Of a stretch of DNA of 64,000 nt, positions 38,838 to 62,082 are shown in pieces (position 1 is the stretch's first letter; every line of letters starts with the position of its first letter). The translations under genes and the position numbers were made by a program. Under the pieces are notes generated by a model. The model was not told the origin of the DNA, ran no database searches, and was given only the letters and a program-made list of their open reading frames with translations. Origin of the DNA: an uncultured virus (IMG/VR IMGVR_UViG_3300025070_000018) (lineage: Duplodnaviria > Heunggongvirae > Uroviricota > Caudoviricetes); the IMG/VR virus record IMGVR_UViG_3300025070_000018; one strand, written 5' to 3'.

Positions 38838-38855
38838 GGAAGGGGGCACGGCTAA

Positions 38856-40706
38856 ATGCCATTCGTAAAATTAACAGCGCCTCCAGGGGTTATCACAGAC
38901 ATCACAGATTACCAAGCGCAAATGCGTTATACTAACGCGGACAAGGTGCGCTTCTTTCAAGGGTATGCAGAGAAGATAGGTGGCTGGACTAAGAGGTTTA
39001 GCTCCGCACAAATCAGTGGCGCATGCCGAAACATTCTACCTCATCGCGATCTCAACGGAACCAAGATGATTCTCATGGGAACATCAACCCATGTTTACAT
39101 TGAGTACTCTGGTGTAGTATATGATGTCACGCCGTATAGAACAGATTCAGCAACACTAACTAATCCCTATACAACGGGAGCAGCAGGCACTAATGAAGTA
39201 ACAGTCACTCACGTTTCCCATGGTTTAGCAAACACTGACCCAGGTTCTCGTGTGGTTATTGACACGGCAGTTACCTTAGATGGTATTACAATTGCAGCGG
39301 GAGAATACGTAGCAACTTATTTAAGTGCTAACACTTACAAAATTACAGGCACAGGAGCAGCAGCATCTGGAGGAGTAACAGGCGGAGGTTCAGTTACATT
39401 ACGTTACTTAGTAAACAACGGTCCTTCTGATGGTCTAACAGGTTATGGTTATGGTGTAGGTTTATGGGGACAATCCTCTTGGGGTACAGCAAGAAGTACA
39501 TCAGGTATTGTTTTGTCACCAAGAGTTTGGTCAATGGATGCATGGGGTGAGGACATTGTTGCATCTGTAGGTGGCGGCGAAGATACTATTTATTATTTTG
39601 ATATCAGCGCTTTCATTGCATCTCCTACTACTTTTCGTGGGACAACACTAGCTTACTATGTCACAAATACTTTAAGCGGTGATGCTTCACAGATTCCATC
39701 AAAGGTCGGGCAAGTTATGGTATCTACTCCTGATAGACACCTAATTGCATTTGGTTGTAATCCTGTGGGTTCATCAGACTATGATCGAATGACAGTACGC
39801 TTTTGTAATCAAGAAGATTTTCAAACATGGACACCTCAGTTAGTCAATACAGCAGGTGAACAAAGACTAGGTACAGGTACAAACATTGAGGCTGTTGAAA
39901 AAGGGCGTGGTCAAATATTCTTATGGACAGATGTAGATGTGTATTCTATGCAGTTTATTGGTCCACCATTTACATTCTCATTCTCAGTGTTAGGAGAAAT
40001 CTCTGGTACTATATCCAAGAACGCGGCAACCACAATAGAAGGTGCTTCATTCTGGATGGGTGTGGATAACTTCTACATGTATGATGGTGCTGTGCGTACT
40101 TTAGAATGTCCCGTATTGACACACATCTTTAATAACTTTAACCAAGTTCAGCGTGAGAAAGTTTTCTGCGGACAAAACATTAAGTTTAACGAGCTATGGT
40201 GGTTCTATCCATCGCAAGGTTCTTTAGATGTAGATAAGTATGTCATCTATAATTACATTGACAAGACTTGGTCTATTGGAGATTTAGGCAGAACAGCTTG
40301 GGCAGATTCTAATATCTATTCCAATCCTTTAGCGATTGATTCTTCTGGTATTCAATATAACCAAGAAGATGGGGTAGATGCAGCAGGCAGTGCGATCACT
40401 GCTTTTGTGGAAACAGGTTTCTTTAATGGTGATCAGAATGGCGACAATGTTTATTTCTTAGATAGGGTGATTCCTGACATTACATTTAAAAATGGTACAG
40501 CCATGAAGTTTACATTAAATAGTAAAATATACCCGCAAGATGCCTTGATAACTAAAGGACCATTTACTATTAACGCAACTGACCCTGAGTTAGATTTTCG
40601 CGCTAGAGGTAGATCCTTCCAAGCCAGGTATGAATCTGATACAACAGGAGTGTCATGGAGATTAGGCACGTGGCGTGCGGACGGTAGACAGGATGGATTA
40701 AGGTAA
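38856..40706 (+). CDS. Podovirus tail/packaged-DNA stabilisation protein (tail tube B / P22 gp10-like)
   Basis: DKVRF...EKIGGW N-terminus, beta-propeller-like composition, WRLG..R.D...DG.R end. Confidence 0.7.
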   Translation: MPFVKLTAPPGVITDITDYQAQMRYTNADKVRFFQGYAEKIGGWTKRFSSAQISGACRNILPHRDLNGTKMILMGTSTHVYIEYSGVVYDVTPYRTDSATLTNPYTTGAAGTNEVTVTHVSHGLANTDPGSRVVIDTAVTLDGITIAAGEYVATYLSANTYKITGTGAAASGGVTGGGSVTLRYLVNNGPSDGLTGYGYGVGLWGQSSWGTARSTSGIVLSPRVWSMDAWGEDIVASVGGGEDTIYYFDISAFIASPTTFRGTTLAYYVTNTLSGDASQIPSKVGQVMVSTPDRHLIAFGCNPVGSSDYDRMTVRFCNQEDFQTWTPQLVNTAGEQRLGTGTNIEAVEKGRGQIFLWTDVDVYSMQFIGPPFTFSFSVLGEISGTISKNAATTIEGASFWMGVDNFYMYDGAVRTLECPVLTHIFNNFNQVQREKVFCGQNIKFNELWWFYPSQGSLDVDKYVIYNYIDKTWSIGDLGRTAWADSNIYSNPLAIDSSGIQYNQEDGVDAAGSAITAFVETGFFNGDQNGDNVYFLDRVIPDITFKNGTAMKFTLNSKIYPQDALITKGPFTINATDPELDFRARGRSFQARYESDTTGVSWRLGTWRADGRQDGLR

Positions 40707-40903
40707 TGGCATTATACAGCAGACCCGCATACCCAGAACCTTCATACAAAGAAAGAACAGAAGGAAAGATTGATGTCAGAACATATGACGCATTAATACA
40801 GGTTTTAAAACTAAGGGATTACTCAGAAGAGAATCCGCCAGTAAAGATAGCAGACCAAACAGAGATTAGAGCAATGGCTTGGTTTTTAGGAGATCATAAT
40901 TAA
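40706..40903 (+). CDS. Hypothetical virion protein
   Basis: Translationally coupled in structural operon. Confidence 0.55.
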   Translation: MALYSRPAYPEPSYKERTEGKIDVRTYDALIQVLKLRDYSEENPPVKIADQTEIRAMAWFLGDHN

Positions 40904-41244
40904 TGTCAACATTATACAAGTCAGTAGGTTTTACTTTAACCGCAACAACTTTAACTACAATATACACATGCCCAACCGAAACAGAAACTATTGTTAAAAC
41001 GATACAAACTACCAATCACACCACATCAGGCAATATAGGACTAAATGTTTTTGTTAACAAGAGTGGTACCGATTATGATATAGCTCACCATGTATTAGAC
41101 AGTAAAGATTCTTTAAATGTTATTGATGGCACGCTTGTCCTTGAGCAAGGTGACATTTTAAAACTACAAGCAGATACAGCTAACAAGCTCAGTGGTTTGG
41201 TTTCATTCTTGGAGGTCAGAAGTGATACAAAAAATCCGATATAA
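40903..41244 (+). CDS. Tail-associated beta-rich protein
   Basis: TTIYTCP...LVLEQGDILK. Confidence 0.55.
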   Translation: MSTLYKSVGFTLTATTLTTIYTCPTETETIVKTIQTTNHTTSGNIGLNVFVNKSGTDYDIAHHVLDSKDSLNVIDGTLVLEQGDILKLQADTANKLSGLVSFLEVRSDTKNPI

Positions 41245-41260
41245 TTTTCACCGTGCCCCC

Positions 41261-41289
41261 TTGTATTTAGGGCATAAAAAGGGTATAAT
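41261..41289 (+). promoter_or_regulatory. Sigma70 promoter, probably leaderless transcript
   Basis: TTGTAT-N17-TATAAT; ATGs at 41293/41296 with no SD; CCGTGCCCCC abuts the -35. Confidence 0.7.
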
Positions 41290-41292
41290 ATT

Positions 41293-42513
41293 ATGATGCA
41301 AGGATACGCAGGTCCAGTACAACAAGGAGATATGGTCGTACGAGCGAACGAAGTTTCGCCAGGTATTACTGCACTCTTATCAAAACAGAACAGGAAGGGG
41401 GCACAGGGAATTTATGAACTTCCTGGAGCACAACAGCCAGTCCCTAATTATTACAACATGGCACTAGACAATGTTCAAAACGAGATTCGATCAGCGGCGC
41501 GTACGGTTAATGCGATGGCGCCAGAGGGTGAACGACTAGCTTACGTTAACCCACAAGAAGAAGGTATATTAAAATTATTAGGTGGCGCAGGCGAACCACA
41601 ACCTGTCACAGGTATACCATCATACTATGTTTCGCAATACAGAGGAGGTAAGCCCGATAAACCTATATCTAAATCACCCAGGATTTCACAAGGTTTAAGG
41701 GATGCTATGAATAAGCGATCAAAAGATACACCACCACCGCCACCAAGTTCTTCAAAAGACACAGGTAATAAACCATATATTCCTATGGTTGCTGGAGGTA
41801 TTGGAAAAGATGAATTTAAAGATGACAAAAATATAGATAACAATTATGCACAACAAGCATTGATAAATGCATATGTTGCAGGAGCAGCTAAACAAGCTCA
41901 AGGTGCGGCAGGGGGTAATATAGGACAAGATGCACTACGCGGACTGTCTGCTTTAAAAGGACAAGCAAATAAAACTTTCTTTAGCAGTGACTATAATAAA
42001 ATGTTAAATAGAGCAATGAAGTATGGAGATCCTTTAACTACAGGAAACTATTATTTAGGAAGTGCTGATAATGATCTTAGAAAAGAAGGTATTTTTGGTG
42101 ACTATGATACAGAAGAAGGTAAGAGATTAAAGTTTGGTTTAGGTGGGGGAGCTTCTAAGATTGGTGACTTCTTTTCTAATTTTGGCTTAATGGGTTTACT
42201 AAATAAATTATTCCCAGGGGATGAGATGACTTTCGATGAAAAATTAAAAGCTTACGATGCAATGAAAGCTCAAGAAGAAAAACAACGTATGAGCAAAGAT
42301 GCTGGAACTGCTGACTCAACTGGAGAAGATGATACAGATACAGATGATGAAGATGAATCAGAAGAAGAGTATCCATTCTTTGGTTATAGAAGAAAGGTAC
42401 AAGTACCTTTATCTCTTGAAGATATTATGAGTAGATATTATAGTTCTGATCCTGATAGAAAAAATATTTTAGAAGACCTTGATGCTGCTGTAAAAAGAAG
42501 GGATGATTCATAA
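41293..42513 (+). CDS. Probable ejection/internal virion protein
   Basis: APEGERLAYVNPQEEGILKLLGGAG....TGIPSY segment; low complexity; synteny. Confidence 0.55.
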   Translation: MMQGYAGPVQQGDMVVRANEVSPGITALLSKQNRKGAQGIYELPGAQQPVPNYYNMALDNVQNEIRSAARTVNAMAPEGERLAYVNPQEEGILKLLGGAGEPQPVTGIPSYYVSQYRGGKPDKPISKSPRISQGLRDAMNKRSKDTPPPPPSSSKDTGNKPYIPMVAGGIGKDEFKDDKNIDNNYAQQALINAYVAGAAKQAQGAAGGNIGQDALRGLSALKGQANKTFFSSDYNKMLNRAMKYGDPLTTGNYYLGSADNDLRKEGIFGDYDTEEGKRLKFGLGGGASKIGDFFSNFGLMGLLNKLFPGDEMTFDEKLKAYDAMKAQEEKQRMSKDAGTADSTGEDDTDTDDEDESEEEYPFFGYRRKVQVPLSLEDIMSRYYSSDPDRKNILEDLDAAVKRRDDS

Positions 42514-43391
42514 TGTTAGATTTTTTATTCGGAACTAAAGAAGCACAACAAACTTCAACAACCTCAGTAGAACTTCCAGAGTATATGGAGAAAGCTGCTA
42601 AATCCTTAACGGGAGTAGCAGGTGATGTAGCCAAAGAAGGTTTTATACCTTACACAGGTCCAAGACTTGCGGCTATGTCGCAAGCAGAAAAAGACGCAAT
42701 AGCCAGAGCCCAATCACAGACAGGTATCGCGGGTACACAGGTGGGGCAAGCTTATACTGCTGCAACAGCAGCGGGGGCACCGATTGGTCAAGCCGATCTC
42801 CAAAGATACATGAACCCATACATGACTAATGTTGCGGATATCGCAGCAAGAGAAGCGCGAAAACAATCTGCCATTGAGCAGCAAGGTATCGCAGCTCAGT
42901 CTGCGCAAGCAGGTGCATTCGGTGGGTCGCGACAAGCTGTACTAGAAGCTGAGCGTCAAAAAAATTTACAACAAGGGATTGGTGATATCTATGCGCAAGC
43001 CCAACAACAAGCTTTTCAAACTGCACTAGGTGCGGCACAACAAGAAAGACAACAACAATTACAATCTGCTTTAGGTATGGCAAGTACTGGTCAGGCAGGT
43101 CAAGCAGCAAGACAATCAGATTTCCAACAGTCTATGGGCATTGGCGGGCTACAAAGACAGATGGAACAACAGGCTTTAGACTTGGGTTACTCTACATTTG
43201 TACAGGAAAGAGATTACCCAAAACAACAATTAGGATTCTACTCTGATATTTTAAGAGGAGTTCCGACAGGTGAAACAAGAACATACACTGGGACACCAGT
43301 CCAACAGCCTAGTTTCTTTTCACAGGCGATGGGTTTAGGTGTGCAAGGATTAGGAGTGGCGGCTAATTTAGGTTGGCAGCCGTTAGGATAA
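42513..43391 (+). CDS. DNA transfer/pilot (ejection) protein
   Basis: Ala/Gln-rich; YMNPY, GAFGGSR. Confidence 0.65.
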   Translation: MLDFLFGTKEAQQTSTTSVELPEYMEKAAKSLTGVAGDVAKEGFIPYTGPRLAAMSQAEKDAIARAQSQTGIAGTQVGQAYTAATAAGAPIGQADLQRYMNPYMTNVADIAAREARKQSAIEQQGIAAQSAQAGAFGGSRQAVLEAERQKNLQQGIGDIYAQAQQQAFQTALGAAQQERQQQLQSALGMASTGQAGQAARQSDFQQSMGIGGLQRQMEQQALDLGYSTFVQERDYPKQQLGFYSDILRGVPTGETRTYTGTPVQQPSFFSQAMGLGVQGLGVAANLGWQPLG

Positions 43392-44419
43392 TGGCAGATT
43401 CATATTCAGATTTTTTAAACTTAGCTGAGACTTTGGGCATACCACTAAATACAAATGATGTAAGTACTATTGCCCCGCAACTTCAAGAGCCTCAATCCAA
43501 CTTAGATACAGCTTTAAGTGGTATTGTTAGTAATATTAAACAAGGAGAGTTTAATAAAAATCAAGGTCAAGCTATGTCAGACGCGTTAGGAATTATGGAT
43601 TTGATGGAACAAGAAGGTAATTACAATGTTAAAGATTTAGCCGAAGACATGGAGAAAGCAGGTATAATAACTTTAGACCCTGACACTAATATATTTTCAG
43701 AAGGAAACGCAAGACGAGACGCCGCAGATTATTTAGCTAGAGAAAAATCTTTTTCTAAGATACCTGCAGACGATAGATTGCCTTATGATTTTGATATTAA
43801 ATTAAAAGATAAGCCACCCATCCGAAGTAAAGATAAAAAGGGAGATGCTAAAAAAGAAGAAAAAGTTAAAGAAGATGATAGACCTAAAGAGTTAAAAGAT
43901 TATTTAAAAGATATCATGTCTGATGGTGATTCTCTGATTGCTTTAGGTAGTGCTATAGCCAGGGGCGAAGGTTTAGTTGGGGGTCTTCAAGACTTTAATG
44001 AAGCCAGAAAAGCAACTAAAGCATTGCAAAGAGAACTTGCAACGCAAGACTTCGAAAGAAAACGTCAAACAAAATTAGATGAATACACTATCGCAGCTGC
44101 TCAAATGGATATTGCTTACAAGCAAAGTCAATTAACTACAGATGAAATTAAAAACGCGCAAAGTGCTGCACTGTTTGAAGCAACAGCAGAAGGTATAGAC
44201 CCTACAGACCCTAATTTAACTGAGGAACAGCTATCAAAATATTACGCGATTCTTAATAAGAAAATGGATATGATTATCAATAAAGAGAAACCGATGACTA
44301 CTGGGGCTTTTGGTGAACAAATAGCCATGCAAGCTATACAAGATGCTGTGGGTGGTGAAGGCACAGGGGCTGTTGGTCAGGGTAATAAACAAATTACCGA
44401 ATCATATAAAGATTATTAA
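43391..44419 (+). CDS. Probable internal virion protein
   Basis: Start coupled to upstream stop (TAATG); synteny. Confidence 0.55.
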   Translation: MADSYSDFLNLAETLGIPLNTNDVSTIAPQLQEPQSNLDTALSGIVSNIKQGEFNKNQGQAMSDALGIMDLMEQEGNYNVKDLAEDMEKAGIITLDPDTNIFSEGNARRDAADYLAREKSFSKIPADDRLPYDFDIKLKDKPPIRSKDKKGDAKKEEKVKEDDRPKELKDYLKDIMSDGDSLIALGSAIARGEGLVGGLQDFNEARKATKALQRELATQDFERKRQTKLDEYTIAAAQMDIAYKQSQLTTDEIKNAQSAALFEATAEGIDPTDPNLTEEQLSKYYAILNKKMDMIINKEKPMTTGAFGEQIAMQAIQDAVGGEGTGAVGQGNKQITESYKDY

Positions 44420-44464
44420 AGTAAAGAGCTTGGCTCTTGAATACACGAAAGTGTAACAAAAAAC

Positions 44465-47400
44465 ATGGCAGAAGAAGTAACATATAAACCTATAAGTGAT
44501 TCCAACATAGCTAATATACTAGCTAAAAGTTCTGCCATAGCTTCACAAGGAATCGCCGCTCCTCCTAAACCTACAAGTGAACAGCTAAAACAAATGGCTG
44601 ATTCATCTCCCGAAAATTTAAAATATATATTATTATCTGATGACCCGAATGGTCCTCGCATGGCAGTTCCTAAAGACGCTACAAAAGAAGAAGTACAAGC
44701 GTACTTAAAAAATCCTAAACTAGAGCAAAACTTATTTAACCAAGGTTACATATATAAGTTTGGTATTGGAGCTGAACGCTATGACAACCCCAACGACTTA
44801 GATGATACTGCATTTACAAAAGGTTTGAAAGGTGGATGGGCTGGTCTTAAACAGATAGGAGCGGGGGCACTCGGAACTGTGGCTGATGTTTTAGGCATGG
44901 AAGACTTAGAGAAAGCCACCAATGATGCTATCCAAAGATATCAAATACAAGGGATGGCAGATCAGTTTATCAAAACCAAAGATGGTGAAGTTATTCCTTT
45001 TGAAGCATCTATTGAAAAGATATTAACTGAAGAGGATAGAGCCGCGCATTTCTTTGATTGGCTAGGATTCAATGTTGGGCAAGGTCTTGTCACTACTATA
45101 CCCATCTTCGCTGCTAGTATGGTTAACCCTGCACTTGGCGTAGGTATGGCTTACGGTATGGGTGTGGGTGATTCCAGAATAGCACAGCTAGAAGCTACAG
45201 ATTTTGAAAAAGCAAACGCAGGATTATCTTTAGCTATTGGTGTACCATACGCGGCAACTGAATATTTATTAGGTGCTGGTAGTATATTACAAAGAATGCT
45301 TTATCAAAAGTTTGGTAAAGAAGCTACGCGCAAAGGCATAGATAAATTATTAAAACAGTCTACATCCAAAACCATTGGCAAAGAAACAGGTAAGTCAATA
45401 GCAGGCGAATCATTGGCTGAAGGAACACAGGAAGCTCTTGTAGAATCTGCTGGAGTAATTGAAAAAGCTCTTGACACTGACCAAGAAATAATTGCATCTT
45501 TATCCGACTTGTACACTGACAAAGATTTTTATAAAAGAGTTGGTGAATCAGCAGGTGCTGGTGCTGCGGGTGGTGGACCATTTGGTATTACTGGTGGTAT
45601 TGTAAAAAGTTATCAAATAAGTGATATTAAAAATATTGATGCTAAAGATTCTAAAGCTTATCAAGACAACAGAACTAATGATGATAAAGACCCTGTTGTA
45701 ATAGACAAGTTAGGTGAAGATTATACAAACAATACCTATACTGTTACAGGTATAAGTTCTAGTAAAGATATTGATGACAATGATATAGTAGATGAGGATG
45801 GTAATATTGTTACACCTCAATTCCAAGTAATAGGAACGTACGATCGGGGTGGTCAAAGGAAAGTTTTTCTAAAAGACTTAACACCTGGTGCTAAAAATAC
45901 TTTCGTTGAAACAGATATAAGTGTATTAGATAGTTTAAATATAATAAAAAAGCCGACAGAAGATAAGAAAGCAGATACTGTTGATCCCCAAACAGGTGAG
46001 GTTGAACAAACCCCTGTATTTGATAAGAGAGAAGATTATGAAAAGATAAATGTAAAACCTCTAACTGATAAGAAAAGAGAAAAGCTCATGAACATCTTAA
46101 GAGGTAGAGGATATACAGATTCGCAAATGGAATTACTTGAAGCGCAAGGACCAAGGGCTTTATCACATGAAGTAGAAAGTGGTTCCAATTATTTAACACC
46201 AGAAGAAATACAACAGCTAGGTCAGCTTGGTTACTTACAAGAGATAGAAGGTGAATTTTCTTTAGAAGTTCCACGTGGTGGACCACGTGCTATTTATACT
46301 CCAGCAACATTAAAAGAAATACAAGAGAATACATCTGTAAATAAAAAGACTGGCAAAACTGCTGGACGTGAAATCTTAGAAGAAATAATAAACAACAAGG
46401 TAGAAAATAAACCGCGTACCTCACCTATTAGAGAGCAAGTCGGAACTACACCCGCCGTGCCCCCCGTCCCTCAGGAAGAAATTGTTAATCAAGCAGATGA
46501 GAAATTAGCTAAAGAAATATCTAAAGTAAGCGAACAGCTTAGAAATCCTAAACTAACGGAAGAGAAAAGGCAAGAGCTACTTAGCTACAGAGATGTTTTA
46601 AATGAGGCATCTGGCGATGTGATGCAACAAGAAGCGCGAGACAGGTATTATGATATGCAAATACTTGCTAATAGAATTGGGCAAGAAAACCACACACCCG
46701 CGGCAATTGAAGGTTACAAAAAAGCGATTGAAGGATTGCGTAAAAGAAAAGGAATTACAGAAGAAGATAGAGCTGCAGAAATAAATAGATTCCAAGCTTT
46801 GATTAATAGAGCAGAAGGAGACTTAAAAAACTTTAATGTGTTGTATACTTCTTTCGGTTATAAACCTTTAACAAGGCAACAGCTAAACAGAATAACACAA
46901 AAGTCTTTCCCAAACAAAGGCAAAATTCGCGCGCTTTATCAAGGAACAAAAGAGAAACCAATTATCAAACCTATAGAAGTTTATTCTGTAGATGATTCTA
47001 CTACTAGAGCACAAGGTGAATTACGCCGAGAAATTAATGACAACAAGATTAAAGCATTACAAAATAAAACTTACTGGGGAACTGTAGGGCATACATTCTG
47101 GAATACAGGATCTGGCTCAATCCCAGGGGGCACGCTGGATGGGGGTAAGTCTGCGTTTTTATATCTCAAGCCTAGTGTATTTTTACGATTAGCCACTAGT
47201 GGGGCTGACACAAGCATAGAGCGTCAAAATCAATTACAAGAACAATATGGTAAGGGTGCCCAAAATGGTATTACTCCACCGTATTTAAGATTAAAGTTAC
47301 GTTACACAGATGCGGGTAATCCAATCCTAAGTGTTACAGGGCACGAAGGAAGACATCGAGCAGTATATGCTAGCAGATTAAATCCAGACAAACCCATACC

Positions 47401-53163: not shown

Positions 53164-53172
53164 GGATATATC

Positions 53173-53805: not shown

Positions 53806-53806
53806 G

Positions 53807-53905
53807 ATGGAATCAATTTGCAAATCTTGTGGGCACAATTGTCACTGCAGTAACTCCTCTCAATGCCATTGTGGTTGCGCAAATTGCGCACACGGAAAGG
53901 AATAA
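53807..53905 (+). CDS. Metallothionein-like Cys/His peptide (32 aa)
   Basis: MESICKSCGHNCHCSNSSQCHCGCANCAHGKE; fills the gap between two genes. Confidence 0.65.
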   Translation: MESICKSCGHNCHCSNSSQCHCGCANCAHGKE

Positions 53906-53907
53906 AA

Positions 53908-54066
53908 ATGCCAAAGGGACCAGGAACATACGGAAGCAAGGTGGGGAGACCTGCCAAAAAGAAAACAAAAAAACCAGCAATGGGACCAGCTGGAAAATTG
54001 ACAGCAAAACAGAAAAAGCTACCCGATTTTCTAAAGGAAAAAATACAAAAGTCAAAGAAGAAGTAA
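53908..54066 (+). CDS. Small basic protein
   Basis: MPKGPGTYGSKVGRPAKKK; AAAGGA RBS. Confidence 0.65.
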   Translation: MPKGPGTYGSKVGRPAKKKTKKPAMGPAGKLTAKQKKLPDFLKEKIQKSKKK

Positions 54067-54326
54067 TGGCGTTAACTAAATCACAGAAAAGTTTAAAGGC
54101 TTGGACCAAACAGAAGTGGCGTACTAAATCTGGTAAGCCATCTACTCAAGGTCCAAAAGCTACAGGTGAAAGATATTTACCATCTGCCGCTATCAAGTCT
54201 TTATCCTCTGGTGAATATGCAGCGACTACCGCTGCGAAAAGAAAAGCTAAAGCTGCTGGTAAACAACATGCATCGCAACCAAAGAATATAAAAAAGAAAA
54301 CTAAAAAATTTAGGAAGGTATCGTAA
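54066..54326 (+). CDS. DUF5872-like basic protein, C-terminal part
   Basis: SQKSLKAWTKQKWRTKSGK...GERYLP. Confidence 0.65.
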   Translation: MALTKSQKSLKAWTKQKWRTKSGKPSTQGPKATGERYLPSAAIKSLSSGEYAATTAAKRKAKAAGKQHASQPKNIKKKTKKFRKVS

Positions 54327-54721
54327 TGTTTAATTTATTAGTAGGTCCTCTGGCATCTCTACTAGGAGACACAGTTAAAGGATTTGTAGCTACTAAGAAA
54401 GCTAAAGCTGATTTAGCTTTAACAGAAATAAAAGCACAGAAAAGTTTAAAGGAACAACAGATCGCAGGAAAGATTGGATGGGAAGCATCCGCTGTAGATC
54501 AAATGAAAGGGAGCTGGAAAGATGAAGTAATTTTACTAGCCCTGTTAATTCCAGCGGTGCTAGTTTTTATTCCTGGTTGGACACCACATATTAAAGCAGG
54601 GTTTGAAGCCTTGCATAGTCTACCAGATTACTATAAACATTTATTATATATCGCCTGCTCAGCTAGCTTTGGTATCAAAGGGGCTAAAGGTGCTATGGGA
54701 TTAATAACTAAAAAGAAATAA
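54326..54721 (+). CDS. Holin-like membrane protein
   Basis: SWKDE, TM helices, ASFG; upstream of lysozyme. Confidence 0.7.
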   Translation: MFNLLVGPLASLLGDTVKGFVATKKAKADLALTEIKAQKSLKEQQIAGKIGWEASAVDQMKGSWKDEVILLALLIPAVLVFIPGWTPHIKAGFEALHSLPDYYKHLLYIACSASFGIKGAKGAMGLITKKK

Positions 54722-54833
54722 TGTATCAATTAGAAATATTCACATATAAGATTATCGCTAGTGTATATAAACTATTTGAAAAAGAAAAACCTAAAGATGA
54801 ACATGAAGTTCATTGGGGTATAGGAGGCAGATA

Positions 54834-55280
54834 ATGTTTGAAAAACTTAAGGAGAGAATAAAAGAACACGAAGGATTTAGGTCTTATGTTTACAAGGATT
54901 CATTAGGATTCGCAACCATAGGATACGGTCACTTGGTAACAAAGGAGGACAACTATGAAGAAGGTATTGAATACAGTCAAGAACAACTTGATGCCGTCTT
55001 TGAAGATGATTTTGAAAATGCCTGTGATTGCGCTCAATTGGTCGCTGACAATTTTAATATCAATTTTGACGAGCACCCAGAACCTGTTAAAGAAGTTCTT
55101 ATAGAAATGGTATTTCAGTTAGGTGTTGGAGGGGTAAGTAAGTTTAAGAAATTTCTTGGACACTTGTCTACTAACACCTATCATTTTGCCGCGGACGAAA
55201 TGCTCAATTCACGTTGGGCAAAACAAACACCTATGCGTGCAGAAAAATTATCATATACAATTAGAGGACTAGCCTACTAA
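54834..55280 (+). CDS. Lysozyme (GH24, T4-like endolysin)
   Basis: HEG....Y.D..G..TIGYGH; SRWAKQTP.RA. Confidence 0.9.
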   Translation: MFEKLKERIKEHEGFRSYVYKDSLGFATIGYGHLVTKEDNYEEGIEYSQEQLDAVFEDDFENACDCAQLVADNFNINFDEHPEPVKEVLIEMVFQLGVGGVSKFKKFLGHLSTNTYHFAADEMLNSRWAKQTPMRAEKLSYTIRGLAY

Positions 55281-55281
55281 C

Positions 55282-55920
55282 GTGGCTTTCCTAGTAGCCA
55301 ATGTGCCGCCTGTTGAAGTCCTTGTTAAGAAGGAATATCTTTATGACTTTCAGAGGGGGCACGGTGAATACGAACCAGGGTTATGGATCACCGCAAAATC
55401 TATCCAAGGTCGCGCATTATATTTTGAGACCTATCTCTATGAGACAGGAGCTCTATATGATAAGCTTCCTATCTCGGCTTTTGTTTGGAAAGAAACGAAG
55501 GAAGAGATGGAACTTGAAGACCTAGAGCTTTGGGACTGTTTCAGCTACCACATCTCAGTTATACAAAAGGTGAGTGTAGGGTCGGGGAAATGTAAATACA
55601 AGGCTCCAAACGGGAATTTTTATTATGGGGAGTATTTATATACTATAGATAGTTGTCATCCCGAATATAATATACCAGATATTGGGTATTCTGAGGTACC
55701 TACACAACATAAGTCCTTTAATATAATACAATTAGACAACGGATATTTCGCCGCTCAGCCTAACAATCGGGTAATATTCTACGATAAGTCTTTATCCCCA
55801 AAGAAGATGAGGTTCCCAGACTACAAGGTTTCAACTATTGAATATGGTGTGGAAAATAAATCTAAGTACACCGCAGGGGATGATACTAATTTCTTTTATG
55901 AGTTCGAAGAACAAAGCTAG
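55282..55920 (+). CDS. Conserved hypothetical phage protein
   Basis: GTG start, GAGG RBS, long clean ORF. Confidence 0.65.
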   Translation: MAFLVANVPPVEVLVKKEYLYDFQRGHGEYEPGLWITAKSIQGRALYFETYLYETGALYDKLPISAFVWKETKEEMELEDLELWDCFSYHISVIQKVSVGSGKCKYKAPNGNFYYGEYLYTIDSCHPEYNIPDIGYSEVPTQHKSFNIIQLDNGYFAAQPNNRVIFYDKSLSPKKMRFPDYKVSTIEYGVENKSKYTAGDDTNFFYEFEEQS

Positions 55921-55934
55921 GCAAGAAGCCTAGC
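55911..55934 (-). terminator. Hairpin between convergent operons
   Basis: GCTAGGC-AAGAA-GCCTAGC; short T-run on - strand. Confidence 0.55.
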
Positions 55935-55950
55935 CCATTCCTCTTATAAT

Positions 55951-56151
55951 TTACTTCTGTGGTATTCTTAATACGTTAGGGAAGTATTGATTTTCTTTAT
56001 AAAAATTAAAAGCCCAGTACCAATCGTCTTTATATTCTGCTCTCGCGTACTGTTCTAATTCTGAGTCTCCGTCTGTTCCTGCAGTATTAAAGATGTTTAA
56101 ACATCTATTAACAAATGAGTTAGTTACGGAGAAAGTTCTTGGGTTTGCCAT
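55951..56151 (-). CDS. Hypothetical protein
   Basis: AAGGAG RBS. Confidence 0.6.
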   Translation of the reverse strand: MANPRTFSVTNSFVNRCLNIFNTAGTDGDSELEQYARAEYKDDWYWAFNFYKENQYFPNVLRIPQK

Positions 56152-56321
56152 AGTTTCTCCTTTATTGATATCTCAGCCAAGGCTCTCCAGTAGTCCTTGT
56201 CTTTGATTGAGAGTGTAGCAAACTTTTGCTTAGAAGTCAAGCGTCTACTGCTGAATAGCAGGTATAGCTTTTTTGCAAGGCTATCGTATTTAGTTTTAAA
56301 AGGATAAGTATCTGTTTTCAT
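56124..56321 (-). CDS. Hypothetical protein
   Basis: AGGAG RBS. Confidence 0.6.
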   Translation of the reverse strand: MKTDTYPFKTKYDSLAKKLYLLFSSRRLTSKQKFATLSIKDKDYWRALAEISIKEKLWQTQELSP

Positions 56322-56335
56322 TTTGCTCCTGTAAT

Positions 56336-56466
56336 AAAAAAAGGAGCCAGCATTTCTACCAGCTCCTTTGTACGGTTGTGGAAAAAAGAGATCCCCAAAC
56401 TGTTCTTAAACATATCGTCTAAGAGAAGTAAGGTTCTTCGTGCCCCCCTGTCTCCAATTTAATCTT
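56336..56466 (-). ncRNA. Candidate structured small RNA or attenuator leader (~130 nt)
   Basis: Promoter TTGACA(56501-56496)-N17-TATTAT with TG extension; internal hairpins; terminator GGAGCTGGT...GCTGGCTCC-T7 at 56336-56369. Confidence 0.5.
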
Positions 56467-56497
56467 ATAGTAATAATACCATAAGTTAGTCAATTTG

Positions 56498-57463
56498 TCA
56501 AGAGGAAAATGCATCACCCCAATCTCCTTGAACTGCGCCCTTTGCGTATTCAGTAGCTCTAGTTTCGAAGAAGTTTTCGTGTGCCTGTCCGTTGACAATA
56601 TAGTCTACCCATTCCAATGGGTTTGACTTTACTCCGTAGTTAGGCTTCAAGCCTAGCTGAAGTAATCTTCTGTCCGCCATATAATGTACATAGTTCTTAA
56701 CTTCTTGAGGAGTTAAGCCTTCGACTGGACCCTGCTCAAATGCTAGATCAATAAACTTTTCTTCCAAAGTTACCATGTCTCTACATATATCATACAGTGA
56801 CTTTTTAAATTGATCATTCCAGATGTGTGGCTTCTCATCTAATACAGTATGTAAAAGTTTAATCATGTTTTCAACGTGGTGATTCTCATCTCTGATAGAC
56901 CACGCTACAATTTGCCCCATACCTTTCATCTTACCGAAGCGCTGAAAGTTTAGTAGCATAATAAATGAACCAAACAATTGCAAGCCTTCACCGAATGCAG
57001 AGAACACTGCCATGTCACGAACGATCTTCTCTTCTTCCGTGCCCCCTTTATTTTCCCAAAGATAGTTATGTTTGTCTGCCATCTCTGCGTACTCTTGGAA
57101 TGCTTTATACTCTCTGTCATCCATACCAATAGTATCATTCAGCAGTGAATAACTATGCGCATGGTTAGCCTCCGACGTAGCAATAGCGGATAACATCATA
57201 CGCACTTCTGGTTTCTTGAACATGGGTATATACACATCCATATAGGCTTGTGCAATGTCTACGTCACCTTGGGTAAAGAACGTTAAAATCTGTTTCACTA
57301 GATTCTTTTCTGCATCATTCATCTTAGAGTTCCAATCATTTACATCTTCATGCAATGGAACTTCACTGGGTAACCAGTGCATCTTTTGTTGTTGGTCATA
57401 GGCTTCAAACGCCCATGGATATTCAAATGGTTTATAGTACTCTCTTCCTTTAAATACTGACAT
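56498..57463 (-). CDS. nrdB: Ribonucleotide reductase class Ia beta subunit
   Basis: FFTQGD, EANHAHSY, EGLQLF, RDENHH, NFFE. Confidence 0.95.
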   Translation of the reverse strand: MSVFKGREYYKPFEYPWAFEAYDQQQKMHWLPSEVPLHEDVNDWNSKMNDAEKNLVKQILTFFTQGDVDIAQAYMDVYIPMFKKPEVRMMLSAIATSEANHAHSYSLLNDTIGMDDREYKAFQEYAEMADKHNYLWENKGGTEEEKIVRDMAVFSAFGEGLQLFGSFIMLLNFQRFGKMKGMGQIVAWSIRDENHHVENMIKLLHTVLDEKPHIWNDQFKKSLYDICRDMVTLEEKFIDLAFEQGPVEGLTPQEVKNYVHYMADRRLLQLGLKPNYGVKSNPLEWVDYIVNGQAHENFFETRATEYAKGAVQGDWGDAFSS

Positions 57464-57472
57464 ATATTCTCC

Positions 57473-59230
57473 TTATGCTTCGCAAGCCACGCATGCGGCT
57501 TCTTCTTGTTGATAGTCTTGTCTTATAGTTCTTTCTATCTGGTTAGATAGATTTTCTACTTTCTTTAAAGCTTGGCTTCTCATGTAGTAAAGTGTTTTTA
57601 CTTTACCTTTCCACGCCCTCAAGTGAATACCATGTAATGTTTTGGTGTCCACGTCTGGCGGTAAGAACAAGTTTAAACTTTGTGATTGACAGATGTATTG
57701 TTGTCTGTCTGCCGCTAGATCAACTAGCAACCTCTGGTCCATCTCGATAGCTGTTTTAAATATAGATTTCTCTTGTTCTGATAAGAACTCTAAGTGCTGT
57801 ACACTACCCCCATTAGTCACAATAGATTTCCAAACTTCTTTATTGTTTCTATCATGCTTTAATAATACTCTCTCTAAGTATTTATTTTTCATAAGGAATG
57901 TACCGCTCAAAGTCTTTTGAGAAAACGCATTTGCGCGTAGCGGTTCGATAGATGGAGAAGTTCCCCCACAAATTACAGATGAAGAAGCATTAGGAGCAAT
58001 GGCAATGACATGTGAATGTCTTAGCCCTGTGCCCTCCATGTCTGCGGGAGAACCCCTCTCTGCTCCCAGCTTTTGATTAGCAGATTGAGCCTCTTTGTTT
58101 ATATGCTTAAATATATAGTCATTGATATCTTTAGACATATCATCATCCATTGCTACTTCTCTCTTCTGAAAGTAACTATGTAACCCCATTGTACCCAAGC
58201 CAATGGCTCTTTCACAACGCGCTGAGTTAACTGCACGCCACATGTAAGAGGGGGCACTTGTAATGAAATGCTCTAAAACATTGTCAAGCATACGCACCAA
58301 ATCTTCTATGAATAATTTATTATCTTTCCACTCATCAAAGTATTCTAAGTTCACTGAGGATAAACAACACACCGCAGTTCTATCTTTTGCAGTTGGTAGT
58401 GTAATCTCAGAACATAAGTTTGAGTGATTAAATTTTAATCCCAGTTTCTTCTGTGATTCTGGCAGTGCTGCATTCACTGTGTCAATGAATGAGATATATG
58501 GCTCGCCTGTAGCTATCCTTGTTTCTAGAATCTTAATCCATAAAGTTCTAGCATCAAGAGTTTTAATAACTTGTTTAGTATGGGGATCAATTAAATCCCA
58601 AGCCTCGCCTTTTTGTACAGCCTCCATGAAAGCATCTGATACATTGATACCGTGGTGTAAGTTTAAATTTTTTCTATGGATATCTCCGCCTGTAGGTTTT
58701 CTCATTTCAATAAACTCTACAATCTCTGGGTGTGATACATCCATGTAGGAAGCGTAGCTACCACGGCGTGTTGCGCCTTGATGAAAGGCAGTCATCTGTG
58801 AATCGACCACGTGCATGAAAGGAATAACTCCTGTAGTTTTATTACCAATACTTGTAGCCATACCCTGTGATCTAACATCACCCCAGTAGCCACCAATACC
58901 GCCGCCCATACTAGACAACCATATGTTCTCAGTATAGTGATCTGCTAAACCTTCACGTGAATCATCTACATAATTTAAGAAGCAAGATATAGGTAGCCCT
59001 CGTGTTGTACCTCCGTTGGATAGAACAGGTGTGGAAAACATAAACCATAACTTACTAGCGTAGTCATATAATCTTTGTGCGTGTGCTTGATCATCCGCAA
59101 ATGTTTTTGCTGCTCTGGCAAAGCCGTCTTGAGGACTAGCCTCAGTAGGTAGTAAGTATCTGTCTTTTAGTATTATTTTGCCAGACTCTGTCAAGAGTTC
59201 ATCGCGAGAGTAGTCTATATTTATTTTCAT
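57473..59230 (-). CDS. nrdA: Ribonucleotide reductase class I alpha subunit
   Basis: PISCF, SNLCSEI, VCCLSS, APNASSS, LYY, C-terminal CVAC; ATG 59230 with AGGAG RBS. Confidence 0.95.
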   Translation of the reverse strand: MKINIDYSRDELLTESGKIILKDRYLLPTEASPQDGFARAAKTFADDQAHAQRLYDYASKLWFMFSTPVLSNGGTTRGLPISCFLNYVDDSREGLADHYTENIWLSSMGGGIGGYWGDVRSQGMATSIGNKTTGVIPFMHVVDSQMTAFHQGATRRGSYASYMDVSHPEIVEFIEMRKPTGGDIHRKNLNLHHGINVSDAFMEAVQKGEAWDLIDPHTKQVIKTLDARTLWIKILETRIATGEPYISFIDTVNAALPESQKKLGLKFNHSNLCSEITLPTAKDRTAVCCLSSVNLEYFDEWKDNKLFIEDLVRMLDNVLEHFITSAPSYMWRAVNSARCERAIGLGTMGLHSYFQKREVAMDDDMSKDINDYIFKHINKEAQSANQKLGAERGSPADMEGTGLRHSHVIAIAPNASSSVICGGTSPSIEPLRANAFSQKTLSGTFLMKNKYLERVLLKHDRNNKEVWKSIVTNGGSVQHLEFLSEQEKSIFKTAIEMDQRLLVDLAADRQQYICQSQSLNLFLPPDVDTKTLHGIHLRAWKGKVKTLYYMRSQALKKVENLSNQIERTIRQDYQQEEAACVACEA

Positions 59231-59282
59231 GTTTGCTCCTTTATTAATTTTGAATGTTTCTCGAGGCGAGTTTGCCATCCTA

Positions 59283-60539
59283 TCACAACTTAACGGGAAA
59301 CACAAGACCGTCTTGTACTTTTATATATCCCGCTTCCTCCATAGCTTTGACAGTCTGCTCAGATTCACCAGGTGCGAGAGTTCTTCGAAGAAGTTCTCGC
59401 TTAAAGTGTCGAAGGTGGATGTATCCTTGCTTCGAATTTGTCATGGTTTCTTTAGACCATACTGCCATATCTTGCGCTAGTTTACCCGCCCTAGCCATTC
59501 CAAAGCCTGCCAACGCACGAGGCATAGCCTCTTCTACTTCAAACATTAAGTCTTTAGTTCTCTGCCAATGGTCCCAAGTAATAATCTTATCCTTGGAACT
59601 GCTGGCTGAGATAGCTAGAGATACTTTAATAAAGTGTGATACTCTACGTTGTGTATACTCAGCTAAGTTTGCATCAGTTGGTATTGGATCAAGTCCTGTT
59701 TCAATATCTTGATTGATCTTATCAAATGCTCGGTCATCAAATCTCATTGGTCCATACATCTTAGCAATCTCAGCTAAGTCATGTCTGAGATTTACAATAG
59801 TTGCATCAGATACTCTATCTTGTAATAAAGATTGAGGAATCTTTTCACCATCATAAAACACAGGAATGATTCTAGATAATAGACCTTGTGATCTGGCATC
59901 TTCTGGTAAGTTATCCACGAACTGCTCGGGTGTAGCACATGCGATCCAATTTAAACAAGGACCTTTAATAATATGCTCACCCGCAGTCTTGGTCTTATGT
60001 GAGTATTCTTCTTTACTATCCCACATATCAGTCAAGAACATTTGTAGGTAACGCTCATGTCTTGATAGAAATGTACCAAGCTCTGAAGTTACTAATGTCA
60101 ATGACCCATCAAAAAATTCTTCACCCATTGTAGATAATCTCATGTCTAGTCTTGAAGCCTTAGACATATCCACTGCTAATTTTTCTGGGGTAATTCTATC
60201 CTGTATACAATACAAAGGAAACTCTTTCAAACCGTACTCAGCTAACCCCGAATTAAAATTCTCGTGATCTGTTTTTGTACCTATAGGTGTTGTTAGTTTA
60301 CGAAATATTTTACTGAATGGTAGAATCAAACTTACTGATTTGTTTCGCCCAGGTCCAGCCACAAGCACGACGAATATATTCGCACGTATATCGTAGTTAG
60401 CCATAGGCATCCACACTCTTCTACCTAATGCACCAGACACAGATGACAGTGCCGCCCAAGTTCTAAACAACTTAGGTATCGGACTTTTTTCTGTAGCCTT
60501 TACACATGCATCTATATAGTCTTTATATATTCGCGCCAT
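59283..60539 (-). CDS. DUF3987/YfjI-like P-loop protein (putative replicative helicase-like ATPase)
   Basis: NIFVVLVAGPGRNKS, TPEKL, SELG, GLLSR. Confidence 0.65.
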   Translation of the reverse strand: MARIYKDYIDACVKATEKSPIPKLFRTWAALSSVSGALGRRVWMPMANYDIRANIFVVLVAGPGRNKSVSLILPFSKIFRKLTTPIGTKTDHENFNSGLAEYGLKEFPLYCIQDRITPEKLAVDMSKASRLDMRLSTMGEEFFDGSLTLVTSELGTFLSRHERYLQMFLTDMWDSKEEYSHKTKTAGEHIIKGPCLNWIACATPEQFVDNLPEDARSQGLLSRIIPVFYDGEKIPQSLLQDRVSDATIVNLRHDLAEIAKMYGPMRFDDRAFDKINQDIETGLDPIPTDANLAEYTQRRVSHFIKVSLAISASSSKDKIITWDHWQRTKDLMFEVEEAMPRALAGFGMARAGKLAQDMAVWSKETMTNSKQGYIHLRHFKRELLRRTLAPGESEQTVKAMEEAGYIKVQDGLVFPVKL

Positions 60540-62082
60540 CGTGCCCCCTTTCCCATGTTTTCATATTCTTCCATGTGTTACCCACCTCTACAGAGGAAGG
60601 TATCACCAGTGTTCTAGTACCTACTTGAATAGGATTAGTCATACACTCAACGATCTTAGGCATCAGCTCATCTACCTTTTCAGTAGGAACCTGTCCTAAA
60701 ATCGCGTCGTGTACTTGTCCCAATACTTGAACACCATCATCACATAACTCATTCCACACTCGATATAATCCCATGTTCAATAAATCACCAATAGTAGATT
60801 GAGGTACGTAAGCAATAGCACCACGTAATGTAGTGGCATCATCCAGCCTGCCCCAGAATTGTCTGCGTCTACCAATAGGAGTAGTTAGTGTCCCAGTATT
60901 TAACAACTCATTTGCTATACTGTCATGCCATTTACGTATTCCAGGGAACGCGCCAGGCACATCAACATACTGAGTCTTTTCACCATATACTTTACCATAT
61001 GCTAGAAGCTCATCAAAACCAGCTTTAGGATCTTGTTGATGCCAGCGATTGACAGAATCAAGACTGACCACTCCACCATAATAAAGTAATTGGAATCGTG
61101 TAGCATGTGCTACTTTAATCTTCAGATGTCTAGCCAAAGACGCGGCTGACAAACCATAGTTAGTACCATGACCTGCGCGCTTACACATATCCCTAAAACT
61201 AAACTGTAAGTAATAAGGATTCTCGGCTAGCTGTCTCTCTTGTTTAGGATCGCCACTCCAACCCATGTTTTTCCAGACCATTTTAACCACAGTGGTATGC
61301 AAGTCACCACTCTCACAAGCATCAATATATCCTTGGTCGTCTGTTAAGTAGGCAACCACACGGGATTCCGCTTGCTCTAAGTCTGCGTAGAACATAGTCA
61401 TACCTTCATCGGGTATAAATATTTCGCGCAAGTCTTTCGTTATGTTTTGAAGATTAGTTCCTGTACCCCAAGGGGCTTCTGAAGATGACCAACGACCTGT
61501 CTCTGTACCTGCCACATTATAAGAACAACGAATACGATTATCTTTGTCTCTATCTGTATCAAGCACACCAAGTTGTTTGTCGATATCGCGCAACGCAAGG
61601 ATAGCGTTGGCAAATACTTTTGCTCGTGGGTAGTTCTCTCTTAGTTTTTCAAGAGCCTCACGATCTGTTGAAACTTTTGACTTACCTTTTTTATATGACA
61701 TGATCTTAGGTATACCTAAGTGTACATAAAATAAATCCTGTAATTGTTTTGGTGAGGCGTGGTTTAAGTCTTTACCTGTTGCCGCTTGTGAAAAGAGATT
61801 CAACATTCTCTCTAATTTCAAACGCGCTTTTTTCAAGGGGGCACGCATGTTCCTAACTTTCTCTAAGTCAACGCGTAAACCCTTCTGCATCATAGCCATC
61901 GCAGGCTTGAGGCTGTCTAGTTCAAACTGATATGTCTTGGTTGTAGTATCGTCTAGTTCTTTCTTGATCTTCTGCCAAATCTCTAGCGTTACCGCACAGT
62001 CAAGGGCGCAGTAAGTCCAGAGTGTTTGCTCAGAATCTAGCTCGATATTTTGTATATCTACGTTCTTTATTATTTTTGCCAT
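60523..62082 (-). CDS. Family A DNA polymerase, C-terminal part (ExoIII + thumb/palm/fingers)
   Basis: YCALD, TGRWSS, NLQNI, DLEQAESR, KRAGHGTNYG, QVHDA. Confidence 0.92.
   Translation of the reverse strand: MAKIIKNVDIQNIELDSEQTLWTYCALDCAVTLEIWQKIKKELDDTTTKTYQFELDSLKPAMAMMQKGLRVDLEKVRNMRAPLKKARLKLERMLNLFSQAATGKDLNHASPKQLQDLFYVHLGIPKIMSYKKGKSKVSTDREALEKLRENYPRAKVFANAILALRDIDKQLGVLDTDRDKDNRIRCSYNVAGTETGRWSSSEAPWGTGTNLQNITKDLREIFIPDEGMTMFYADLEQAESRVVAYLTDDQGYIDACESGDLHTTVVKMVWKNMGWSGDPKQERQLAENPYYLQFSFRDMCKRAGHGTNYGLSAASLARHLKIKVAHATRFQLLYYGGVVSLDSVNRWHQQDPKAGFDELLAYGKVYGEKTQYVDVPGAFPGIRKWHDSIANELLNTGTLTTPIGRRRQFWGRLDDATTLRGAIAYVPQSTIGDLLNMGLYRVWNELCDDGVQVLGQVHDAILGQVPTEKVDELMPKIVECMTNPIQVGTRTLVIPSSVEVGNTWKNMKTWERGHDGANI

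Follow-up and report, generated by a model that had tools for sequence, protein, structure and literature searches.

The deoxyribonucleic acid (DNA) of phage tf carries 14 nicks, which lie in 5'-TACT/RTGMC-3' and occur in the top strand only. Nicks occur at similar positions in LUZ24, PaP3, and MR299-2, which prefer another consensus than tf, and the function of the localized nicks of T5, phiKMV-like phages, and tf has been unexplained for decades (PMC3517423). The localized nick sites of tf/LUZ24-like, phiKMV-like, and T5 phages appear to be the closest known case to the subject of this study, the short asymmetric word GGGGGCAC, which is dispersed over the genome of an uncultured podophage of approximately 55–60 kb, here called phage 2. 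This phage occupies the second part of the window, i.e., the whole stretch of 64,000 nucleotides that was analysed (IMG/VR record IMGVR_UViG_3300025070_000018). The first part, from position 1 to approximately 37.6 kb, is a T7-like temperate pelagiphage (phage 1) with a guanine-cytosine (GC) content of 29–35%. In a whole-word literature search, no phage literature was found that mentions GGGGGCAC, GTGCCCCC, RGGGGCA, or GGGGCAC, and the word is not a described system in the phage literature searched.

When applied to tf, the k-mer method used here recovers the known nick consensus, with TACTGTGAC as the top 9-mer (11 copies versus 0.26 expected; 14 on the top and 0 on the bottom strand). The clade of phage 2 resembles tf in that a short asymmetric word is strongly over-represented (27 versus 0.34 expected in G002, the IMG/VR contig of the same phage as phage 2), is found both inside genes and at gene starts, and has similar positions among relatives with a lineage-specific consensus. 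In contrast to tf, the density of the word is two to three times higher in the clade, and the decisive difference lies in the use of both strands by the clade word. A nickase is known neither for the tf-type systems nor for the clade word. At the BLAST level, the clade shares a virion protein, a lysozyme, and an adaptor protein with tf, in addition to an amidoligase/GATase cluster, and the 119X/PaP2 group and the clade have a pair of PolA and a so-called primase in common. Among the literature matches listed, nothing relevant to phage nick systems acting on both strands was present.

Other dispersed words invite comparison as well. Chi is an asymmetric G-rich 5–8-mer that is read on one strand, is dispersed over the genome, and protects DNA ends from a processive nuclease. 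The clade word is likewise asymmetric, G-rich, and dispersed, but Chi belongs to the host genome and is polar with replication, whereas the clade word is absent from candidate hosts beyond background and shows no polarity. The uptake sequences of Neisseria (DUS) and Pasteurellaceae (USS) occur on both strands, in all frames, and approximately once per 1–2 kb, and they are maintained at the DNA level. The clade word shares the presence on both strands, the similar density, and the maintenance at the DNA level; however, uptake sequences fill a bacterial genome, while the clade word is confined to lytic-looking phages and missing from SAR11-type genomes. Stoperators, the repressor sites of L5 and other cluster A mycobacteriophages, number tens of asymmetric dispersed sites per genome with a lineage-specific consensus, as do the sites of the clade. 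They are 13–14 bp long, mostly intergenic, and oriented with transcription, whereas the clade word is intragenic at 65 of 83 sites, with a share of sense-strand sites (75%) close to that of a composition control (72%). The purine run of the clade word, followed by five guanines, also recalls retroviral polypurine tracts.

The template trinucleotide of the SP6 primase is GCA (PMC2532735, PMC2034472), compared with 5'-GTC-3' for T7 and 5'-GTT-3' for T4. By the rule quoted in PMC2532735, the middle base of a primase site is a pyrimidine and the 3' base is "cryptic". The likeness to these sites is one of form only: the clade word ends in GCA, has the middle pyrimidine, and its 3' base would be the "cryptic" one, while its 5' run of guanines would be copied into a C-rich primer. 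Known primase sites differ in being trinucleotides that need no enrichment, and no primase domain was detected in the scanned clade proteins.

In the window, GGGGGCAC occurs exactly 17 times, ten times on the plus and seven times on the minus strand. All copies lie within 38842–61844 and none before 38842 (Table 1), whereas a dinucleotide shuffle of the window expects 0.23 copies (standard deviation 0.45, maximum 2); 17 copies were reached in none of 100 shuffles. A first-pass annotation of this DNA had counted at least 16 copies. Its ten plus-strand places were all borne out, its minus-strand places are zero to two bases off, and the variant with four guanines that it saw at 60540 proved to be a full minus-strand copy at 60541–60548. 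Six copies extend to GGGGGCACGG, as it had noted, and its estimate that about two thirds of the G5/C5 runs carry the word agrees with 17 of 25 runs in 38000–64000; the four runs in 1–38000 contain no copy. The measured GC content of phage 2, 0.35–0.41, is in keeping with its 38%, and the expectation is indeed well below one copy. The encoded dipeptides GA, GT, GH, VP, and AP were confirmed, but the copies in the window occupy five of the six reading frames, one fewer than it had stated. The word was called private to phage 2, which holds against phage 1, where neither GGGGGCAC nor any of its 24 one-mismatch variants is found; the record nearest to phage 1 (G001, 29.4 kb) also has no GGGGGCAC. 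It does not hold beyond the window, as the word is common to a whole clade of relatives.

The window from position 37971 onwards is 99.87% identical to G002 (51.9 kb) over 26,033 bases, and G002 extends 25.8 kb past the window end. Loci that encode relatives of the 616-amino-acid virion protein of phage 2 (64–100% identity) contain GGGGGCAC in 23 of 25 cases. The word is present 27 times in G002, 24 times in G003 (60.6 kb, rated complete), and 15, 18, and 11 times in G004, G005, and G006, while a reversed control word is absent from all five. In G002, G003, and G004 it is the top over-represented 8-mer (80-, 79-, and 51-fold relative to base composition), and an order-2 Markov model expects only 0.34, 0.21, and 0.26 copies, respectively. 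The density in the clade is approximately one copy per 2 kb on both strands, with forward to reverse ratios of 16:11 (G002), 11:13 (G003), and 7:8 (G004). One-mismatch variants are near expectation, except for AGGGGCAC with 2, 4, and 8 copies in the same three genomes. Word-bearing contigs come from many independent assemblies, with runs from 16 studies.

The 7-mer GGGGCAC is more uniform, with 29, 29, and 25 copies in G002, G003, and G004. The base preceding it at these 83 sites is G in 66, A in 14, T in 3, and C in none, and the base before that is A in 52, G in 24, C in 7, and T in none. G007, in which GGGGGCAC at first seemed to be missing, contains 32 GGGGGCA in 38 kb. There, the base after GGGGCA (37 sites) is G in 18, A in 10, T in 5, and C in 4, i.e., GGGGGCAG or GGGGGCAA is preferred, whereas C follows GGGGGCA in 27 of 29 cases in G002. 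In this sister lineage the last base has thus moved from C to G or A; GGGGGCAG occurs 17 times versus 0.22 expected, and the 5' side shows a stronger T-A-A preference. A wider sample was built on the DUF3987 protein, which has 208 relatives in IMG/VR, and comprised the loci around the best 80 of these. GGGGCA is present in all 80, at 0.44–1.59 per kb, and the preferences for the first and last base are sharp in the group with 74–100% identity and relaxed in the group with 64–67%. Because GGGGCA occurs in every locus and the flanking preferences vary by identity group, the general core is RGGGGCA, usually after a short purine run, and it is sharpened to GGGGGCAC in the lineage of the window.

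The word is selected at the nucleotide level and is phage-specific. Codon-preserving shuffles, which keep each protein and the codon pool of each gene, yield 1.26 copies in G002 (maximum 5 in 300 shuffles), 0.67 in G003, and 0.73 in G004, compared with 20, 18, and 11 intragenic copies observed. For GGGGGCA in G007, 1.5 copies are obtained versus 26 observed. The enrichment therefore persists under the Markov model as well as under codon shuffling. The 65 intragenic sites among the 83 of the three genomes are distributed over the sense frames 0, 1, and 2 (21, 19, and 9) and the antisense frames 0 and 1 (6 and 10). The other 18 lie at or between gene ends, while the non-coding share of the sequence is approximately 5–7%. 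Sense-strand sites make up 49 of the 65 (75%) versus 72% (242/338) for permuted 7-mers of the same composition. The glycine-codon word GGTGGTGG behaves differently: in HTVC023P, 30 of its 32 copies are in sense frame 0 and bunched in few genes, and since these are glycine codons in the sense frame, it is attributed to a protein-level effect and not to a signal. Several marine phages (HTVC023P, DSL-LC04, and G004) have GGTGGTGG and similar words as their leading k-mers, concentrated in few tail-region genes.

Relatives also keep the sites. Of the orthologous sites that could be aligned, 17 of 22 remain intact between G002 and G003, 13 of 20 between G002 and G004, and 10 of 16 between G003 and G004, whereas all aligned 7-mers, taken as control, are intact in 26%, 17%, and 18%, respectively. 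Conservation extends to synonymous positions, with 71 of 100 third-codon positions identical within the word versus 506 of 913 (55%) in the flanks (Fisher p = 0.003). Within the sub-clade, G003 retains 15 of 20 alignable G002 sites, and G004 retains 9 of 19. Over a deeper split, this drops to 3 of 14 in G007, 3 of 13 in G008, and 3 of 14 in G009, although these genomes carry 18–32 copies of their own. Positions turn over while the density stays, which fits selection for density, not for place.

In two genomes, the copies are spaced more evenly than expected by chance: the coefficient of variation of the gaps is 0.60 in G002 (P = 0.003) and 0.59 in G003 (P = 0.002) versus approximately 0.95 for random placement, and the largest gaps are 4.0–4.3 kb versus 6.8–7.8 kb expected. 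In the other four genomes, the coefficient lies below the random mean, but not significantly. The orientation walk along the genome does not differ from permutations in any of four genomes (P ≥ 0.32). Together with the share of sense-strand sites, this agrees with the earlier statement that the word is not polarised by strand or transcription. Neighbouring sites alternate strand in 108 cases and share it in 66, a weak trend, as orthologues are counted repeatedly and it is seen in only four of six genomes. Divergent "-+" pairs account for 10 of 22 close pairs within 300 bp; they are few and not independent. A ribosome-binding or promoter role was rejected, since it covers a small minority of sites: 11 of 133 lie at most 20 nucleotides before a co-oriented start, compared with 2% expected.

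The independence from frame and orientation, the even spread, and the turnover of places argue for a recognition site of a phage-encoded protein that would have a genome-wide, place-independent function, and they argue against gene-specific regulation. A phage-encoded reader is further supported by the lineage-specific last base (C in G002, G or A in G007), and by the co-occurrence of the word with a clade-specific replication module that is not found in word-less cultured relatives. From the functional inference in the first-pass annotation, a nucleotide-level and phage-specific signal outside the described systems is retained, while a host-shared or Chi-like sense is contradicted for SAR11-type genomes. 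Neither of the two outcomes that the annotation had named as refuting it came about: the codon-preserving shuffle left the enrichment standing, and relatives did not lose the sites freely at synonymous positions.

The replication-recombination block shared by the word-bearing genomes differs from that of word-less cultured relatives. It contains a split PolA with a UDG-like/exonuclease protein, a DUF3987 P-loop protein, a Sak4-like protein, a PD-(D/E)XK nuclease, and an HTH_8-metallophosphoesterase. Ribonucleotide reductase (RNR), an Amidoligase_2 with a GATase_4-like protein, and a giant virion protein of 2420 amino acids are also common to these genomes. Domain scans covered 22 window proteins, 29 G002 proteins, 22 proteins in NCBIfam, and 48 of the 79 open reading frames (ORFs) of at least 60 amino acids in G003, with thresholds of E ≤ 0.01 for Pfam and ≤ 0.1 for NCBIfam; 31 G003 ORFs were omitted as collinear with scanned proteins, and two ORFs spanned locus borders. 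In the proteins scanned from the window, G002, and G003, Toprim, zinc-ribbon, and AEP primase domains were not found, and neither were methyltransferase, DpdA, Dnd, or Ssp domains.

Two proteins of this block had been put forward as candidate readers, and neither gained specific support. The HTH-metallophosphoesterase belongs to a family that is widespread in phages, and a sequence search of the PDB returned only a chance-level match (E 0.86). The DUF3987 protein is a P-loop protein without a detectable primase domain. The name "DNA primase" comes solely from PHROGs and from the annotation of 119X/PaP2-type phages (approximately 22% identity). The protein has no sequence match in the PDB, and its structure model is too poor for use (mean pLDDT 41.4). 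Longer fused DUF3987 forms were not found, which is weak evidence. The amidoligase/GATase_4-like cluster is located at L030:13085-15270 in G002 and at L026:14690-16905 and L027:22-492 in G003, where a GGACT cyclotransferase is present as well. Clusters of this kind also occur in phage tf and in LUZ24-like phages.

The clade of phage 2 probably infects SAR11, because its tail module matches pelagiphages and phage 1 is pelagiphage-like. The module at 37421–38837 has DNA-level matches in nine phage records, of which one belongs to an uncultured phage and eight to Pelagibacter phages representing several types. The identity to the Pelagibacter phages is 67–85%, and it is 95% between the two phages of the window, which suggests a host-recognition module that is exchanged across phage families. 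Five single-cell genomes (approximately 5.7 Mb) served as candidate hosts. They were found via T7-like portal genes, and by title comprise three Pelagibacteraceae, one Candidatus Pelagibacter, and one alphaproteobacterium. GGGGGCAC occurs in them 2, 1, 2, 4, and 3 times, and the reversed control 2, 3, 0, 1, and 0 times. With 12 copies in 5.7 Mb, compared with approximately one per 2 kb in the phage, the word is nearly absent from these presumed hosts, so that a host Chi or uptake signal is excluded for them. In cultured structural-gene relatives, whose 616-amino-acid protein is 30–36% identical, the word is found once in HTVC023P and not in HTVC027P, DSL-LC04, CRP-901, and 023Pt_psg01. No relative of the 616-amino-acid protein was found in bacterial genomes.

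By analogy with the mapped nick systems, the copies may be dispersed nicking or priming sites read by the replication module of the clade itself, a tentative reading that is preferred here but falls short of an even chance. The reader would be a protein of the replication-recombination module, be it the split PolA, the DUF3987 protein, the Sak4-like protein, the PD-(D/E)XK nuclease, or the HTH-metallophosphoesterase. The word would mark where one strand is opened or started, approximately every 2 kb and on either strand, through a sequence-specific nick or the start of a primer. In favour of priming are the GCA end, with its likeness in form to the SP6 site, the lack of a canonical primase among the scanned proteins, and the word-less HTVC023P-type phages, which have a primase according to their description (PMC9599517). 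It is quite doubtful whether a widespread clade of ocean phages without a recognisable primase begins to synthesise its DNA at a private word missing from the host. In that case, a nick would provide a 3'-OH for strand-displacement synthesis, or the word would serve as an RNase-H-resistant primer site like a polypurine tract. If true, the private word would keep the replication machinery of the phage from working on anything but phage DNA in the AT-rich surroundings of a SAR11 cell.

Several observations weigh against nicking or priming. Every mapped nick system is one-stranded, whereas the clade word is about equally frequent on both strands, and the proteins scanned from the window, G002, and G003 include no recognisable nickase, for instance of the HNH or GIY-YIG kind. 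The even spacing is significant in only two of six genomes, and these two share many sites. The link to tf is remote, as only three different proteins have BLAST matches at E ≤ 1e-3. Caulobacter phage Kuura shares the replication module (26–36% identity), but its best 8-mer reaches only 13 copies versus 1.25 expected. To our knowledge, primase sites are trinucleotides and none is maintained as a 7–8-mer.

A self-mark is considered unlikely. Here, the word would stop or tame a processive nuclease in the manner of Chi, the enzyme being the phage's own or that of the host, so that phage DNA, with a copy approximately every 2 kb, would be spared and word-less host DNA degraded. The scarcity of the word in the candidate hosts (12 copies versus 6 of the reversed control), the even spacing with its short largest gaps in G002 and G003, and the Chi-like presence of an asymmetric, G-rich word on both strands, whose density is upheld by turnover, are all compatible with such a mark, and RNR and several nucleases in the phage fit nucleotide recycling. 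The orientation, however, is without polarity along the genome, a helicase-nuclease of the RecBCD/AddAB type was not found in the scanned phage proteins, other pelagiphages, including phage 1 in the same window, do without the word, and the degradation of host DNA by phage 2 is a supposition. The idea that a phage protein binds the word to organise or silence the genome, either by condensation for packaging or ejection or through stoperator-like roadblocks, is distinctly unlikely. Many dispersed asymmetric sites with a lineage-dependent consensus would be expected of it, and the excess outside genes (18 of 83), the sites shortly before co-oriented starts, and the existence of a clade-specific HTH protein point the same way. 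Yet 65 of 83 sites are intragenic with an orientation to transcription that equals the composition control, the turnover of places between sub-clades speaks against gene-specific regulation, the HTH protein family is widespread in phages, and neither an integrase nor a repressor was seen in phage 2.

That the word is a target at which the phage modifies bases or the backbone sequence-specifically, for protection or recognition, is very unlikely. The word is short and asymmetric like those of Type IIS/III-like modification enzymes, and the clade has unexplained enzymes, namely Amidoligase_2, the GATase_4-like protein, GGACT, the UDG-like domain, and a Pyr_excise-like protein. Against this stand the absence of methyltransferase, DpdA, Dnd, and Ssp domains from the scanned proteins, the fact that such a target need not be enriched or evenly spaced, and the presence of the amidoligase cluster in tf, whose word differs. 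The statistics of the word, with both strands, all frames, and approximately one copy per 1–2 kb, resemble those of uptake sequences, but a signal borrowed from the host, whether its Chi, its uptake sequence, or some other architectural word of the whole host genome, is extremely improbable: Pelagibacteraceae-type genomes, whose assignment as hosts is presumptive, hold 1–4 copies each, like the reversed control, and phage 1, HTVC023P, and HTVC027P hold 0, 1, and 0. The chance of a by-product without function is next to negligible. Codon usage, a recurrent peptide, mutational bias, or an assembly artefact might come into question, and a purine-rich sense strand favours G-rich words. Nevertheless, codon-preserving shuffles give 1.26 copies instead of 20, five frames, both strands, and several dipeptides are involved, one-mismatch variants other than AGGGGCAC remain near expectation, synonymous sites are conserved, and the word recurs in many independent assemblies from the 16 studies. 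Taken together, a host-derived signal and a by-product are highly improbable.

A selected word of 7–8 bases, present approximately once per 2 kb on both strands, offers a handle on an unexplained step of phage DNA handling. It is renewed at new places while lineages diverge, and host genomes are without it. A two-stranded, denser, and evolutionarily dynamic counterpart in an uncultured clade would widen the puzzle of localized phage nicks. The same phage is present in the runs of the 16 studies, dating from 2017–2025, and 354 matches exist for its helicase family; the clade is common in the sea and probably has SAR11, the most abundant marine bacterium, as its host. The word is a simple marker for spotting this clade in metagenomes, and it also served to spot the assembly join described below.

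Table 1. Copies of GGGGGCAC and further features of phage 2 (positions of the window).
Feature	Position	Strand	Context
GGGGGCAC copy	38842..38849	+	intergenic; ATG of the 616-amino-acid virion protein gene (38856) 6 nucleotides downstream; place kept in most relatives
GGGGGCAC copy	41253..41260	-	intergenic; divergent pair with 41397
GGGGGCAC copy	41397..41404	+	gene 41293-42513, sense, frame 2 (K-G-A-Q)
GGGGGCAC copy	42773..42780	+	gene 42513-43391, sense, frame 2
GGGGGCAC copy	44863..44870	+	giant 2420-amino-acid gene, sense, frame 2
GGGGGCAC copy	46457..46464	-	giant 2420-amino-acid gene, antisense, frame 0
GGGGGCAC copy	47126..47133	+	giant 2420-amino-acid gene, sense, frame 0
GGGGGCAC copy	49363..49370	+	giant 2420-amino-acid gene, sense, frame 2
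GGGGGCAC copy	52045..52052	-	HTH-metallophosphoesterase gene, sense, frame 0
GGGGGCAC copy	52604..52611	-	HTH-metallophosphoesterase gene, sense, frame 2; divergent pair with 52798
GGGGGCAC copy	52798..52805	+	HTH-metallophosphoesterase gene, antisense, frame 0
GGGGGCAC copy	55355..55362	+	gene 55282-55920, sense, frame 1
GGGGGCAC copy	56440..56447	-	intergenic; RNR small-subunit gene on one side, small gene on the other
GGGGGCAC copy	57039..57046	-	RNR small-subunit gene, sense, frame 0; sole G002 site kept in 5/5 other genomes compared
GGGGGCAC copy	58250..58257	+	RNR large-subunit gene, antisense, frame 1
GGGGGCAC copy	60541..60548	-	PolA gene end; ATG of the DUF3987 gene 1 nucleotide downstream
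GGGGGCAC copy	61837..61844	+	PolA gene, antisense, frame 1
Phage 2	37599..64000		35-41% GC; corresponds to IMG/VR contig G002
Tail-associated module (XkdW-like and others)	37599..38837	+	no copy of the word; first 621 bases 95% identical to window 1-621
HTH_8 and SbcD/Mre11-like metallophosphoesterase	51729..53174	-	in 6/6 word-bearing genomes compared; absent from four word-less cultured relatives
DUF3987 P-loop protein	59283..60539	-	Walker A motif in residues 61-68; Toprim, zinc-ribbon, and AEP domains not detected
Split family-A DNA polymerase region	60523..63695	-	PolA 60523-62082, two small genes, UDG-like and 3'-5' exonuclease protein 62610-63695

The giant virion-region protein (44465–51727) contains four of the 17 copies. 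It has no Pfam match, its C-terminal part matches an unnamed PHROG (3431 positions), and a comparison of the DNA of its gene with cultured phages gave no match.

Kuura was considered as a second example of a word-bearing phage and rejected, since its top words are only 5–14-fold enriched and one of them is strongly strand-polar. Its word GAGGGAC (33 copies versus 6.7 expected) lies antisense to the gene block in 29 of 33 cases and flips with the direction of transcription; it may be a codon-driven or polar signal.

The junction of the two phages was noticed because GGGGGCAC stops where GC content and homology change. Window positions 1–621 and 37599–38219, the latter within the tail-associated module, are 95% identical. 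In run X6, the depth is approximately 3.6 over the phage 1 part and 7.4–9.2 over the phage 2 part; in run X11, it reaches up to 14 over phage 2, with 0–3.75 in the bins of phage 1. Contig breaks from independent runs cluster at 35.2–38.3 kb, coinciding with a depth peak. The interval 37.9–38.2 kb is spanned by no listed contig piece, although such a hole proves nothing by itself. The shared module, the unequal depths, and the contig breaks at the junction indicate that the join is probably an assembly chimera formed via the shared tail-associated module, which falls short of proof.

Phage 1 encodes a T7-type terminase, an ArdC-like protein, an integrase (7757–8860), a tRNA-Leu (8894–8980), a single-subunit RNA polymerase, a T7-type primase-helicase, PolA, a portal, a capsid protein, a nozzle protein, and a tail fibre. 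Its portal is 56–62% identical to the portals of pelagiphages, roseophages, and one uncultured marine phage. The integrase gene is directly followed by the complete tRNA-Leu(TAA), an arrangement pointing to an attachment site linked to the tRNA. When three exact patterns taken from the 3' half of this tRNA were compared with the bacterial genomes in the collection, none matched. T7-like portal genes with 49–58% identity to that of phage 1 are located on long contigs of about a dozen single-cell or metagenome-assembled Pelagibacteraceae genomes, and represent either prophages or infecting phages. The protein encoded at 4225–5145 of phage 1 is a fusion of ArdC-N with a zincin metallopeptidase (MPTase-PolyVal), an anti-restriction type that is better known from plasmids.

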